A DNA stretch of 42,424 bases from positions 1 to 42,424 of IMG/VR virus record IMGVR_UViG_2563366953_000006; one strand, written 5' to 3'. Of this stretch, positions 26,570-38,132 are shown in pieces (the stretch's first letter is position 1; each line of letters starts with the position of its first letter). The DNA is from a virus. Its lineage: Duplodnaviria; Heunggongvirae; Uroviricota; Caudoviricetes. Position numbers and translations under genes: made by a program. Under the pieces are notes generated by a model, which saw only the letters and a list, made by a program, of their open reading frames with translations, did no database searches and was not told where the DNA came from.

Positions 26570-26896
26570 TTACTCCTTAGAGCCACCAAACTTATTACCG
26601 ATTACTCTCATTGCAGCCCCACGAATAGCATCGACCCCGATCAGCCCAACGCCGCCACCAATGGCAACAGAAAGAGATTTAGGCCATCCGACATACTCAA
26701 GAGCGGATGCAAAAGTCAGCGTCAGAGCACCACAGAGCAAAATCTCGAGCGTTTTTCGTTTCCAGCCACCACCACCGCCAAAATAGGCAATGCGCAAGCC
26801 AGCCATAACGATCGACATAATCACTGCGCCCAGCGGTGTGTCTCCACGCCACCAGCTCTGGACCAACTCCAGCCAGGTATTTGGGTTATGAGGCAT
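26570..26896 (-). CDS. Holin
   Basis: 108-aa membrane protein with hydrophobic segments and a charged C-terminus, directly upstream of the endolysin. Confidence 0.75.
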   Translation of the reverse strand: MPHNPNTWLELVQSWWRGDTPLGAVIMSIVMAGLRIAYFGGGGGWKRKTLEILLCGALTLTFASALEYVGWPKSLSVAIGGGVGLIGVDAIRGAAMRVIGNKFGGSKE

Positions 26897-33980: not shown

Positions 33981-34534
33981 GCGTTAGTTTCTCCACAACC
34001 AGAAGCAATCGACGCCACGACGCCCGGAGCTGCACACTCGCGGGCGTCATTACTTTCTGAAATGCAAAAGATTTTGTAGACAAGTGCTGCATGCTCCTGC
34101 AGCTTCGAAATTGAGAGATACAGCTCGTCGTTAATTGCTGTCTTCTCATGCGGTTCCACTACACCGTCTTCGATTGCTGAACGAATCTGTTTTGAATAAC
34201 TGCCGATCTGTTCAATGACTTCCAGCAGACGCTGGTTAATATCGGCGTTGTCCACATCCTCGACGTCAGGAAGAGACACAAAGACGCCATTTGCAGACTG
34301 CGCCACAGCATCAGCAATGAAGTGAGTGCCACCAGCACGCTGTAAAACCATTGCCCATCCCAGCGGGAAAATCTGATCGCCATCTGCACGAAGGCGGTTG
34401 AATAAAGCGTTTTCTGTTACATCGAGCCAGTCAGCCGCTTCAGCGTAACCACCCGGCAACGCCGCGATAGTTTTTCTGACAGCTTTCACGTACCACTCAG
34501 GCTGTTTTTCTATTTTCCAGTGATGCTTACCCAC
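33977..34534 (-). CDS. Early regulatory protein, possibly CII-like (CP76 family)
   Basis: 185-aa protein directly downstream of the cro-like gene; family assignment from memory is weak. Confidence 0.4.
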
Positions 34535-34787
34535 GGTTCACCTCCTGTTCCTGTGGTTTAAACCCATTCTGGTTTTGGCTAGATTGAAAACGTGCCGGAT
34601 AAAGAATCTGCATTTCGCTGACTTCACCCTTAAAAAAATTGGCTAAACGTTCTGCAAGCTCGATAGATGGAATCTGCTCCAGCCTCTCAATACGACTCAA
34701 CGTCGCTGGATTGACTTGAACACCCGCAGCAACATGCTGCAAAGTGAAACCATGCGCCTTACGCACATTTCGTAATGGTGATTGCAT
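34527..34787 (-). CDS. Cro-like HTH repressor (XRE family)
   Basis: 86 aa, HTH GFTLQHVAAGVQVNPATLSRIERLEQIPSIELAERLANFF; divergent from the cI-like gene. Confidence 0.75.
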   Translation of the reverse strand: MQSPLRNVRKAHGFTLQHVAAGVQVNPATLSRIERLEQIPSIELAERLANFFKGEVSEMQILYPARFQSSQNQNGFKPQEQEVNRG

Positions 34788-34884: not shown

Positions 34885-35577
34885 ATGAACATAGGAAACC
34901 GAGTCAGACAACTTCGCCAAGCGAAGAACATGAAAATCGCCGATCTCGCTGAAGCGATAGGAGTAGATGCGGCGAACATCTCGCGCTTAGAAACGGGTAA
35001 GCAAAAACAATTTACCGAACAAACACTGAGTAATATTGCCAAGAGCTTAGGTGTTGATATTGCTGATCTCTTTACCTCTGCCCACAAAAGTAATACTGTA
35101 TATAAAAACAGTAATAATGAGGATGTTGCGCAGGTGAAGGATGTGTTCCGTATTGAAATGCTGGATATCAGTGCCAGTGCGGGAAATGGCCTTATCCAGG
35201 GCGGTGATGTCATTGATGTGATTCATGCCATCGAATACAGAACTGATAATGCTGTATCAATGTTCGGCGGACGACCAGCCAATCACATCAAAGTTATCAA
35301 CGTTCGTGGGGACAGTATGTGTCCAACCATTGAGCCAGGAGATCTCATCTTCGTTGATGTCAGCATCAATCAGTTTGATGGTGATGGTATATATGTCTTT
35401 GGTTTTGATGATAAAATATACGTTAAAAGACTTCAAATGATTCCTGACAAACTGCTGGTGATTTCTGATAACCAGATTTACCGTGAATGGGGAATTACTA
35501 GCGAAAACGAACACCGATTCATGGTCTTTGGAAAGGTCTTAATCAGTCAGTCGCAAACCCTTAAGAGACATAATTAA
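34885..35577 (+). CDS. CI-like repressor (N-terminal HTH plus C-terminal S24 LexA-like peptidase)
   Basis: HTH at N-terminus (IADLAEAIGVDAANISRLETGK); C-terminal VRGDSMCPTIEPGDLIFVD...YVKRL carries the Ser/Lys dyad. Confidence 0.88.
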   Translation: MNIGNRVRQLRQAKNMKIADLAEAIGVDAANISRLETGKQKQFTEQTLSNIAKSLGVDIADLFTSAHKSNTVYKNSNNEDVAQVKDVFRIEMLDISASAGNGLIQGGDVIDVIHAIEYRTDNAVSMFGGRPANHIKVINVRGDSMCPTIEPGDLIFVDVSINQFDGDGIYVFGFDDKIYVKRLQMIPDKLLVISDNQIYREWGITSENEHRFMVFGKVLISQSQTLKRHN

Positions 35578-35594
35578 CCTCAATATCCCATCCA

Positions 35595-35622
35595 TCGGCC
35601 ACCGAAAGGTGGCTTTTTATTA
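35595..35622 (+). terminator. Rho-independent terminator after cI
   Basis: GGCCACCGAAAGGTGGC followed by TTTTTATT. Confidence 0.6.
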
Positions 35623-35629
35623 CCTATAA

Positions 35630-35670
35630 ATTTGCATATCTCGCAAATATCACTTGCATATCTCGCAATT
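35630..35670. promoter_or_regulatory. Tandem 15-bp direct repeats (candidate operator/promoter for the plus-strand early operon)
   Basis: TTGCATATCTCGCAA occurs twice, 9 bp apart, just downstream of the cI terminator. Confidence 0.45.
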
Positions 35671-35875
35671 TAATTTTATCTTTTGTTCCAGACCAACTAC
35701 AGGATTACAACAAAATCTGGTTGCAACACGGTGCATGTGTCGTAAGCAGTCAGTAAATGTCAAAAACGAACAGGCAGGACGCCCACGAAGTAGCCGCCTG
35801 GGGCATATGAAGTCCAGGATGATTCGTTGAGTCATGTTGTGCCACTAGGCACTCATGTTAAAGCAGGTGTATGAA

Positions 35876-36151
35876 ATGAAAGTCCAGATTTTAAACAATA
35901 ACTGTGAAGTCGTTTGGTCATACGACATAGCCGCCCCTGTAGATCAGAGCGGCGATAGCTGGACCAATGGGAAACATCAGATTATGGCTGGAGTTGTGTT
36001 CTCTTTACGCCGTGCTTTGGAACAGGCTGAAGTATTTCCATCAGACCCTGAATGGAAATGGCCTTTTTCTATTTGTCCAAATTCGGAGAGCACATTTCAG
36101 AAAATTGGTCAGAAAGTCGCACTCGAAGAGCATCAGCCAACTGTTTCCTGA
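35876..36151 (+). CDS. Hypothetical small protein (early plus-strand operon)
   Basis: Start at MKVQIL with AGGTG 7 nt upstream; overlaps a convergent minus-strand ORF so only one may be real. Confidence 0.3.
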   Translation: MKVQILNNNCEVVWSYDIAAPVDQSGDSWTNGKHQIMAGVVFSLRRALEQAEVFPSDPEWKWPFSICPNSESTFQKIGQKVALEEHQPTVS

Positions 36152-36314
36152 TTTTTTCAGGTAACTCGTCGGCATCGCAGAAACAACAACGCTCGATCAT
36201 GTTGAAAGCCGATTCGTAGAACTGTTTCTGCTGAGTGTCGCTGAGACAGGAAAAGAGCGACGTTACGATGATTTTATTAATTGCATTATCAAGTTCTTTT
36301 TCATCAAAAGTCAT
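36069..36314 (-). CDS. Hypothetical small acidic protein
   Basis: 81-aa ORF with AAGGA RBS-like sequence 8 nt upstream; overlaps the 3' end of the plus-strand ORF. Confidence 0.3.
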   Translation of the reverse strand: MTFDEKELDNAINKIIVTSLFSCLSDTQQKQFYESAFNMIERCCFCDADELPEKIRKQLADALRVRLSDQFSEMCSPNLDK

Positions 36315-36419
36315 TTGATTTTCCTTTTATGTATACGGGCTTAAAAGGATACCACCGAGCCTGAAGTGGTGAAAAGACAGGCACATAACAGCTAAGTATT
36401 TTCAACCAGAGAGAATCCT

Positions 36420-36745
36420 TAGCGTTGTGGTGAATGCGGCTCAGCGCACGCGGGTTAAGGTTGAGGCTGACAGTCGACCTTCTGTGGATACCCACCCGCC
36501 TGGTGTGCAACCTTCGCCAGGCACCGGGAGGCACCCGGCACCACAACTTTATGCTGTGTGTAGTCCTGGCGGTACCAGTTTGTACCCTTGCTTCCGGCTG
36601 GTACCGTCCTTTTTTGCAAAACAGAGAAGAGCATCACCGGACGACGGGCTCATAACCCAATCCATCCGGGCGGCTGCCACCGCAGGTGTTCTTCTCTGTT
36701 TTGTGGAGAAACCAACCGACCTTGCAGGGTCGATATGATGAGGAG
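36420..36745. other. GC-rich structured non-coding region (candidate ncRNA or regulatory site)
   Basis: No convincing ORF; 14-bp perfect inverted repeat CAAAACAGAGAAGA (36617..36630) / TCTTCTCTGTTTTG (36690..36703) plus CGGTACCAG/CTGGTACCG and other short palindromes. Confidence 0.4.
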
Positions 36746-36752
36746 CAGCAAA

Positions 36753-37115
36753 ATGGCTAGCGAACGCAGTACTGATGTGCAGGCATTTATCGGGGAGCTG
36801 GACGGCGGCGTATTTGAAACCAAAATCGGCGCAGTTCTCAGTGAGGTCGCTTCCGGTGTGATGAACACGAAAACCAAAGGGAAGGTCTCACTCAATCTGG
36901 AAATCGAACCGTTTGATGAGAACCGTGTGAAAATCAAACACAAACTCTCATATGTTCGCCCAACTAACCGCGGGAAAATTTCCGAAGAAGACACCACCGA
37001 AACGCCGATGTATGTCAATCGCGGTGGTCGCCTGACTATTCTGCAGGAAGACCAGGGACAATTACTGACTCTTGCCGGTGCACCTGACGGAAAACTCCGC
37101 GCAGCAGGTCATTAA
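36753..37115 (+). CDS. Hypothetical prophage protein, YfdP-like
   Basis: Start at MASERSTDV with GAGGAG upstream; followed by YfdQ/YfdR/YfdS-like genes in the CPS-53 order as recalled. Confidence 0.45.
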   Translation: MASERSTDVQAFIGELDGGVFETKIGAVLSEVASGVMNTKTKGKVSLNLEIEPFDENRVKIKHKLSYVRPTNRGKISEEDTTETPMYVNRGGRLTILQEDQGQLLTLAGAPDGKLRAAGH

Positions 37116-37179: not shown

Positions 37180-38004
37180 ATGTCTCAGAACTTAGACGTA
37201 ACCGCAATTAATCAAATCCATGCCCTTATTTCTGCTCAGGGTGTTAATGAAATTATCAGTAAGATTGGTGCCGATGCTGTGGCATTGCCTGAGAATTTCC
37301 GCATTCATGATCTGGAAAAATTTAATTTAAATCGTTTCCGTTTCCGTGGTGCGCTTTCCACTGCCAGCATCGATGACTTTACCCGTTATTCTAAAGATCT
37401 TGCAGATGAAGGCACCCGCTGCTTTATCGATGCCGATAATATGCGTGCCGTCAGTGTGCTTAACCTGGGTACTATTGATGAACCAGGTCACGCAGATAAC
37501 ACCGCCACTCTCAAACTGAAAAAGACAGCACCGTTCTCTGCTCTGTTGTCTGTTAATGGCGAGCGTAACTCCCAGAAATCACTGGCAGAATGGATTGAAG
37601 ACTGGGCCGACTACCTTGTGGGCTTTGATGCTAATGGTGACACCATTCAGGCAACAAAAGCGGCTGCGGCGGTCCGTAAAATCACGATTGAAGCAAACCA
37701 GACTGCTGATTTTGAAGATAATGACTTCAGCGGCAAACGCTCCCTGATGGAGTCTGTCGAAGCGAAGACCAAAGACATTATGCCAGTGGCATTTGAGTTT
37801 AAATGCGTTCCGTTTGAAGGTCTGAAAGAACGTCCGTTTAAATTACGCCTCAGCATTATCACTGGCGATCGTCCGGTACTGGTTCTGCGCATTATTCAGT
37901 TGGAAGCGGTGCAGGAAGATATGGCTAACGAATTTCGTGATCTGCTTGTTGAGAAATTCAAGGACAGCAAAGTAGAAACCTTTATTGGGACTTTCACCGC
38001 CTGA
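37180..38004 (+). CDS. Hypothetical prophage protein, YfdQ-like (DUF2303)
   Basis: 274 aa, same length and operon position as YfdQ of the CPS-53 prophage; identity not verified. Confidence 0.5.
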
Positions 38005-38132
38005 TTTCATTACTGCAAATGCCCCTGCGGGGGCATTTATGGAAACGTAATTGACTCAATAATCGCCTGAAGGCGAGGGTTTTCTTTAACCAAAATTCAG
38101 CGCGGTGCAGCGCATATAACGTGGAGAACAAA

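Follow-up and report, generated by a model that had tools for sequence, protein, structure and literature searches.

A divergent STnc100-type core and a separate three-way-junction RNA in the early-left operon leader of an SfV/mEp460-type prophage

Short leader RNAs that arise by early termination ahead of a long operon are known from lambdoid phages, with the 6S RNA of lambda and StxS as short transcripts running from PR' to tR'. The RNase III hairpin of the lambda N leader is a long helix in a PL leader before the first gene, and operators of the thrS type are mRNA elements that copy a tRNA anticodon arm. Phage HK022, a lambdoid phage without N, carries structured early-leader RNAs (put) upstream of terminators (PMC9378689). 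The closest relatives of the locus analysed here are prophage sRNAs. Eleven STnc100 copies are transcribed in strain EDL933, one of them confirmed by Northern blotting (PMC5331693), and the Hfq-bound sRNA EcOnc27 overlaps an STnc100 copy downstream of stx2B (PMC12711010, PMC12370729). PasD1 and PasD2 of EPEC E2348/69 are Hfq-dependent prophage sRNAs of up to about 240 nt with targets detected by RIL-seq (PMC8550237); a tie in structure and ancestry between PasD and STnc100 has been reported (PMC8550237; bioRxiv 10.64898/2026.05.13.724894), the preprint describing common ancestry. The papers cited here for STnc100, PasD and EcOnc27 assign no function to any of them.

We analysed a window of 42,424 nt, positions 1 to 42,424 of the virus record IMGVR_UViG_2563366953_000006. 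The window opens with a complete tmRNA gene (40-402; 292.8 bits; tag peptide ANDENYALAA), which shows that the prophage is inserted at the ssrA attachment site. An initial annotation of the sequence had drawn attention to a GC-rich, structured stretch (36420-36745) upstream of a yfdP-like gene and had located it in an early-left operon. This location is supported by the operators TTGCATATCTCGCAA and the assigned PL promoter, which lie upstream on the plus strand, about 740 nt before the first of the two RNA modules described below. The prophage is of the SfV/mEp460 type, and both modules sit within its repressor-controlled early-left (PL) operon. The immunity region and this operon contain the following features:

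34527-34787, minus strand: cro-like gene (ORF list)
34885-35577, plus strand: gene for a cI-like repressor of the LexA family (ORF list)
35597-35614: terminator 3' of the cI-like repressor gene (terminator scan)
35632-46 and 35654-68, plus strand: two repressor operators of 15 bp, TTGCATATCTCGCAA (repeat search)
35632..35682, plus strand: assigned PL promoter including the operators, with -35 TTGCAT (35654-59), -10 TATCTT (35677-82) and 17-nt spacing (sequence reading)
35855/35876-36151, plus strand: orf33-like gene (ORF list, PGAP)
36717-32, 36740-45 and 36754-56, plus strand: small hairpin, Shine-Dalgarno sequence GAGGAG and yfdP start codon (sequence, ORF list)
36754-37115, plus strand: yfdP, followed by yfdQ and yfdR

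Judging from the hexamers TTGCAT and TATCTT, PL probably fires rightwards from a start near 35690. The same arrangement of operators and PL was found in mEp460, and a third, related operator copy is present in the OR region (34850-64). The annotation of phage SfV shows the matching gene order, ending in xis and int; from this gene order and the placement of PL, the GC-rich stretch is assigned to the untranslated leader of a repressor-controlled early-left operon. The last 25 nt or so of the stretch that ends at the yfdP start codon are shared with prophage CPS-53 of E. coli K-12, in which both modules are absent, so that K-12 data are uninformative here; a literature search on yfdP yielded nothing relevant. 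Some further elements were recorded in the neighbourhood. An 81-aa ORF on the minus strand (36069-36314) is probably spurious because it runs into the 3' end of the orf33-like gene and is absent from the PGAP annotation. Shortly upstream of this ORF, the same strand has a terminator-like hairpin (36351-36370), ACCACUUCAGGCUCGGUGGU, with a U-rich tail. Two hairpins were noted in the intergenic region between yfdQ and yfdR (38004-38119), one of them perfect, AAAUGCCCC-UGC-GGGGCAUUU, and the other terminator-like. The immunity region of phage ST64B (locus L003, 1409-1597, minus strand) codes for a C4 antisense RNA and isrK, both above the Rfam cut-offs, and neither of them was found in the window at the Rfam gathering threshold.

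The composition and the folding of the stretch agreed with its first description. Its GC content is 57.4%, compared to 42.3% upstream, 46.0% downstream and 50.2% in the whole window, and the plus strand between 36380 and 36760 folds at -163 kcal/mol, compared to -128 +/- 5.7 kcal/mol for shuffled sequences (z = -6.08; all 100 shuffles folded less well). The inverted repeat that had been noticed, perfect over 14 bp, is present as CAAAACAGAGAAGA (36617-36630) pairing with TCTTCTCTGTTTTG (36690-36703) across 59 nt; it extends to 24 nt with 83% complementarity, and a perfect repeat of 14 bp in about 500 nt is expected by chance with a probability of 5e-4 as a rough estimate. The shorter palindromes are likewise real (36424-32/36539-47, 36570-78/36598-06 and 36391-03/36411-23). 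Comparison with relatives resolved the stretch into two separate RNA modules with a linker and a terminator between them, and pairing is kept across the relatives in both. The first part of the leader comprises these elements:

36391..36423, plus strand: leader hairpin directly 5' of the core, GCUAAGUAUUUUC / GAGAAUCCUUAGC (inverted repeat, minimum-free-energy fold)
36419..36552, plus strand: module A, a core of the STnc100/PasD family (Rfam RF02076, model R1, covariation)
36424-32 with 36539-47, plus strand: helix P1 (covariation)
36436-51, plus strand: hairpin P2, its loop ending in GCG as in the P2 loops of most relatives (covariation)
36457-63 with 36508-14, plus strand: predicted pseudoknot, AAGGUUG with CAACCUU in the P4 loop (loop-shuffle test)
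36484-95, plus strand: local hairpin
36498-05 with 36515-22, plus strand: helix P4 (covariation)
36524-38, plus strand: hairpin P5, CCGGG-AGGCA-CCCGG, invariant
36553..36567, plus strand: single-stranded linker, UGCUGUGUGUAGUCC (alignments)
36568..36615, plus strand: Rho-independent terminator with an 11-bp stem, GGCGGUACCAG / CUGGUACCGUC, a 19-nt loop and U6 at 36610-15 (inverted repeat, folds)

In a permissive Rfam scan, the STnc100 model (RF02076) matched positions 36394-36617 on the plus strand with 40.3 bits (E = 3.2e-7) and with all model positions from 1 to 206 aligned. Because this score is below the curated gathering cut-off of 47 bits, module A is missed by a gathering-threshold scan and by public annotation. 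The Rfam check proposed at the outset thus gave one convincing, sub-threshold match, and none for the second module. Both sequence blocks of the family, UGGUGAAU ... CACCGGGAGGCACCCGGCACCA, are present at 36428-35 and 36521-43, as are the closing helix, the 5' hairpin, the invariant 3' hairpin and the hairpin before it of the consensus structure (P1, P2, P5 and P4). A terminator stem (36568-78/36598-08) followed by U6 also stands a short distance 3' of the core. Many relatives have their own promoter next to the core, but module A lacks one there: ATCCTT occupies the expected -10 position, and the promoter scan found none on the plus strand. Model R1, which was built in this study, gave 66.6 bits (E = 1e-15) for the copy in the window, on the plus strand only. 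It detected no significant second core copy in the window, with E = 0.23 for 38004-38119, and the motif matches at 25662-76 and 26881-91 on the minus strand were discarded as further copies, being located inside the Rz-like and holin genes.

Compared to the described STnc100 RNAs (RF02076, including EcOnc27/sRNA103 of EHEC), module A shares the GGUGAAU and ACCGGGAGGCACCCGGCACC motifs, the closing helix, P2 and P5, the 3' terminator and the prophage location. It differs in the sequences of P2, P3, P4 and the pseudoknot and in a core that is about 14 nt longer, and its location is the PL operon, whereas those RNAs lie between Q or stx and the lysis genes. PasD, likened here by its published description only, lies near Q and lpxR, again unlike module A. 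From sequence and predicted structure, we classify module A as a divergent, differently placed member of the known prophage sRNA family STnc100. Among the functions initially suggested for the stretch (an sRNA, a nut-like or terminator element, or a recombination site), an sRNA-family element of the STnc100/PasD type and a Rho-independent terminator at 36568-36615 were therefore recovered, while a recombination site is disfavoured (see below).

BLAST searches showed the whole region at 98-100% identity in PhiR49_1 (100%), SfV, SfII and SfIV and at 77% in Salmonella phage ST64B, and the core alone in Cronobacter phage phiES15 and in P1-like phages. The Rfam model matched over positions 31-147 in phage P1, RCS47 and ST64B and over its whole length in phiES15, where the core occupies the corresponding place upstream of kil and gam. 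In phage P1, the C1-controlled ban operon contains a core that ends 36 nt short of tciA and is followed by no terminator. Phage mEp460 shows PL, terminator and second module as in the window, but carries a 'type II' core instead (locus L251, 1653-1790), which has the same helix P1 strands and a P5 of CCGG-AGAUCAGCA-CCGG and matches no Rfam family. The first core copy of phage P1 (NC_005856, about 2743-2850) resembles this type II core. Matches to the region were obtained in 2785 of 5426 complete E. coli genomes, covering at least 80% of it in 1739 of them. Several phage records have one to three hypothetical ORFs placed at 36427-36738.

A pattern scan of viral contigs yielded more than 120 loci, corresponding to 110 distinct and 69 non-redundant core sequences. 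As GGTGAAT and the P5 block were fixed in the pattern, the invariance of both is partly by construction; the two elements are independently present in the Rfam consensus and, with one change, in phage P1. RNAalifold analysis of 64 cores supported P2 and the closing helix P1, whose two outer pairs show 19 and 10 double changes, and P5 was invariant. When P4 was located in each sequence by a script, 59 sequences gave 45 different P4 stems. In 75% of the 59 sequences, pairing of the P4 loop with the strand directly following P2 outperformed at least 95% of loop shuffles. The resulting duplexes are of 39 different kinds, at a fixed position. We interpret this pairing between the P4 loop and the strand following P2 as a pseudoknot, as predicted from the aligned sequences. 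It is missing from the structure of the Rfam STnc100 alignment, and the word 'pseudoknot' is absent from the 2026 preprint on Pas sRNAs. A pseudoknotted domain of about 125 nt with invariant nucleotides exceeds the needs of a base-pairing sRNA, which hints at an additional or different role, such as the binding of a protein or ligand.

The elements flanking the core are conserved to different degrees. In place of the leader hairpin at 36391..36423, ST64B, phiES15 and phage P1 each have a different hairpin. The linker UGCUGUGUGUAGUC is kept in ST64B and phiES15 despite their differing terminators and may serve as a seed or as an Hfq-contact region; within the prophage, no complementarity to it beyond chance was found. 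The terminator at 36568-36615 escaped our consensus terminator scanner because of its loop limit of 8 nt. ST64B has a different but complementary stem and a U-tract at the same place, so the stem covaries with that of the window. The 19-nt loop suggests a terminator of weak to only moderate efficiency. An ops-like GGCGGTA in its stem was rejected, as it misfits the ops consensus. In many STnc100 relatives, a near-consensus sigma-70 promoter (TTGACN-17-TAAATT) ends about 8 nt before GGUGAAU, which places the start at helix P1, and the terminator follows 14-79 nt past the core (median, 27 nt). Their neighbours are holin/endolysin or nanS-p esterase genes downstream and Q-like, methylase or TerB-like genes upstream. 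This promoter-core-terminator arrangement is the layout of a short late-leader transcript. The stand-alone STnc100 copies upstream of holin/endolysin genes share it with lambda 6S RNA and StxS; the window resembles these in a short leader RNA formed by early termination before a long phage operon and differs in its promoter, PL being repressed in the lysogen while PR' is constitutive. Tandem arrangements also occur: loci L013, L017, L063, L092 and L124 each carry two or three STnc100 cores inside a stretch of about 1 kb, and those of L124 each have their own promoter.

The 14-bp repeat turned out to be part of neither the sRNA core nor the terminator. It is contained in the basal helix of module B, a conserved RNA in its own right, which was resolved into the following parts:

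36612..36708, plus strand: module B (folds, covariation, model R2)
36613-35 with 36685-07, plus strand: basal helix of 23 bp, containing the 14-bp repeat and beginning in the U-tract of the terminator
36637-41 with 36665-69, plus strand: arm 1, enclosing GGG-CUCAUAA-CCC at 36646-58
36670-83, plus strand: arm 2, GCGG-CUGCCA-CCGC

The repeat region is outside the main STnc100 core, and its motif ACGGGCUCAUAACCCAAUC recurs upstream of the cores in phage P1 and RCS47 and in more than 120 viral contigs. The folds of 56 distinct module B variants showed one architecture, a three-way junction, in which a basal helix of up to 23-24 bp starts from the preceding U-tract, arm 1 presents GGG-NUCAUAN-CCC and arm 2 is variable. 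In an alignment of 34 sequences, 88.5% of the cells were paired, compared to 44-51% with slid partners, 14 pairs change on both sides, and none of 500 shuffles reached the observed score. Model R2 scored the window with 108 bits on the plus strand and 26 bits on the minus strand, and it found ST64B (80 bits) and viral locus L017 (46 bits), both of which were outside its training set. The conserved pairing and the strand bias of R2 identify module B as a plus-strand RNA element. Rfam contained no matching family, and ARAGORN reported only the tmRNA in the window and no tRNA cloverleaf at module B.

Module B is present in ST64B and mEp460 and twice in phage P1. In a genome-wide scan for the motif, R2 confirmed 13 loci, 12 of them labelled as Enterobacterales or without a listed label and one labelled as Chryseobacterium; besides the latter and one locus without a listed label, the confirmed copies come from E. 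coli, Kosakonia, Enterobacter, Atlantibacter, Phytobacter, Citrobacter, Mixta and Yersinia. Other genome-wide motif matches were set aside as chance level, about 280 being expected for 16 fixed bases in 596 Gb. The first gene after module B varies between phages and is yfdP-, yfdR-, RdgC-like or excisionase-like (N-termini as read), which assigns the module to the leader and not to yfdP. A likeness of the 3' strand of the basal helix to boxA/boxC (UGCUCUUC...UGUGUGG in relatives, UGUUCUUC in the window) was considered weak, given the sequence in the window and the pairing of these bases.

Taken together, the favoured and in our view fairly probable explanation is a PL-operon leader with two conserved plus-strand RNAs, a terminated, trans-acting sRNA of the STnc100 type and a cis-acting module B on the read-through mRNA. 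After prophage induction, transcripts from PL would reach the terminator at 36568-36615, and those stopping at 36610-36615 would yield a small RNA with the 3' end typical of the family, consisting of linker, hairpin and U-tail. By analogy with the characterised relatives, this RNA may bind Hfq and act in trans by base pairing. The terminator would also limit transcription into yfdP-yfdQ-yfdR and, as in SfV, xis/int. Module B would be present solely in read-through transcripts, where its most likely role is a cis-acting one, directed at the downstream mRNA: it may mark a processing site, stabilise the 5' end or control translation. A 23-bp helix is long enough for RNase III, although cleavage is a purely conjectural step. 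Like the RNase III hairpin of the lambda N leader, module B contains a long helix in a PL leader, and like a thrS-type operator it carries a tRNA-like arm; it differs from both as a three-way junction whose tRNA-like loop lies about 100 nt upstream of the start codon.

Alternatively, module A may itself act in cis as a conditional terminator or antiterminator (put-, nut- or riboswitch-like) that binds RNA polymerase, a protein or a small molecule, with the sRNA as a by-product. This would suit a core placed directly upstream of a terminator in a PL leader, in a phage group in whose examined stretch no N-like gene was recognised, and the related cores in other long leaders (the phage P1 ban operon and the region between Q and the lysis genes) are in line with it. 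A multi-helix junction, a pseudoknot and invariant loops are also typical of RNAs that bind ligands or proteins. HK022 putL is likewise closely trailed by terminator-like hairpins; however, put is about 70 nt long with two stems and no such pseudoknot, its putL sequence is unrelated to module A, and the PL/PR region of HK022 matched neither Rfam STnc100 nor R1 or R2, so that homology of the STnc100 core with putL was rejected. When the 3' part of the core was compared with the 5' strand of the terminator in 73 relatives, their complementarity averaged 4.96, compared to 4.80 for shuffles, with no case at p <= 0.05, although the finder missed many terminators; with the same reservation about the imperfect finder, a classical riboswitch-type switch was rejected, as the 73 relatives show no conserved antiterminator pairing. 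Moreover, no partner gene is conserved (mEp460 lacks an orf33-like gene), and stand-alone relatives accumulate as terminated, Hfq-bound RNAs (PMC5331693, PMC8550237). On balance, we consider a cis-acting module A unlikely and retain the terminated sRNA as the preferred reading for this part of the leader.

A further proposal concerns the apex of module B. Over 14 nt (CGGGCUCAUAACCC) it has the same sequence as the anticodon stem-loop encoded by metZ, an initiator tRNA gene of E. coli, and the identity takes in both the CAU loop and the three G-C pairs that are typical of initiator tRNA. The module could thus be a mimic or decoy of the initiator tRNA anticodon arm that binds or titrates a factor recognising tRNA-fMet, for example a VapC-type anticodon-loop nuclease, MetRS or the 30S P site, and either protects the phage or controls translation of the first downstream gene. 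VapC of Shigella and Salmonella cleaves tRNA-fMet in the anticodon loop. A covarying stem always carries the motif at its tip, all diverged copies seen retain UCAU (CUCAUAA in the window, CUCAUUA in ST64B, UUCAUAU or GUCAUAU in phage P1), and some variants have a second loop, UCCUAA, similar to a CCU anticodon loop. The copying is, however, limited to the loop and three base pairs, with the remaining anticodon stem mismatched (C-A, A-A), and the invariance is partly by construction, since most homologues were retrieved by a pattern that fixed the tRNA-like motif. The resemblance could also stem from descent from a tRNA gene fragment, as phage P1 has tRNA genes and tRNA-like arms beside its copies, and a related stem in lambda lacks the motif. 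Such mimicry therefore appears improbable to us, and a cis element of the read-through mRNA remains our preferred view of module B. The holin gene start on the minus strand (26881-26896, AUGCCUCAUAACCCAAAU) has the 11-mer UCAUAACCCAA in common with the tRNA-like loop of module B; it is coding sequence, and the identity may be due to chance.

The related lambda stem is found immediately after tR' (about 44786-44909; locus L249, 987-1110) and is long, pairing CACAACAGGUAAGAGCAU...GUGCUCUUUCCGUUGUG (CACAACAGGUAAGAGCAUUG / CAGUGCUCUUUCCGUUGUG). Downstream of this stem, the sequence CUGAAU-UAAGCG-AAU-ACCGGAAGCAGAACCGG-AUCACC reads by eye like a reduced or vestigial STnc100 core. Neither the stem nor the core-like sequence was detected by R1 or R2, and the stem is without a tRNA-like arm. 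In phage P1 (NC_005856), structured RNA modules seem to be strung together on the plus strand between 1560 and 3160, within the ban operon leader, which measures about 2.6 kb between Pban and ban. This array contains two module B copies and at least two STnc100-like cores, together with repeated long stems beginning with AACAGGUAAG(G/A)G and a tRNA-like T-arm after trnT. Successive closing helices can also pair with each other, the 3' strand of the first with the 5' strand of the second. The minus-strand genes plp and upl are antisense to these RNA modules and may merit re-examination. It is conceivable, if doubtful, that STnc100-type cores and module B form one modular leader-RNA system of temperate enterobacterial phages (SfV/mEp460 PL, phage P1 ban and lambda post-tR'), with the core as a cis sensor or polymerase-binding domain and module B as a true mimic of the tRNA-fMet arm engaging a factor.

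Least credible, and in our view very unlikely, is a decayed protein-coding gene or a DNA-level site (recombination site, operator or bidirectional terminator), even though a 103-aa frame spans 36427-36738, the PGAP annotation of a 99.8%-identical E. coli genome names this frame a 'frameshifted hypothetical protein', and a repeat perfect over 14 bp is common in DNA-binding sites. As had been stated from the sequence, this sole long frame is not a credible gene, and the comparison with ST64B shows that it is not conserved: mismatches fall on codon positions 1, 2 and 3 in numbers of 19, 29 and 28, the indels, of 1, 1, 2 and 19 nt, are no multiples of three and disrupt the frame, and stop codons interrupt it in ST64B. 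The same data speak against the degraded ORF that had been named as a possible refutation of an RNA element. A DNA or recombination site is disfavoured because the pairing is maintained by G-U wobbles and compensatory changes and because R2 favours the plus strand as strongly as described above, as does R1; the cI operators, moreover, differ in sequence and lie elsewhere.

The region is usually unannotated or labelled as a frameshifted pseudogene, although it is present in about half of the complete E. coli genomes. Module A extends the STnc100/PasD family from late-operon 'moron' positions to a repressor-controlled early-left operon and supplies a predicted pseudoknotted fold that is missing from the Rfam STnc100 alignment. 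Module B is an uncatalogued RNA motif with an initiator-tRNA-like arm, which links the leaders of phage P1 and SfV-type phages and has a related stem in lambda. Neither Rfam nor the papers cited here describe module B, the pseudoknot or the links to the leaders of phage P1 and lambda. If it is true that either module acts in cis, this would bear on how lambdoid phages without N pass their early terminators.
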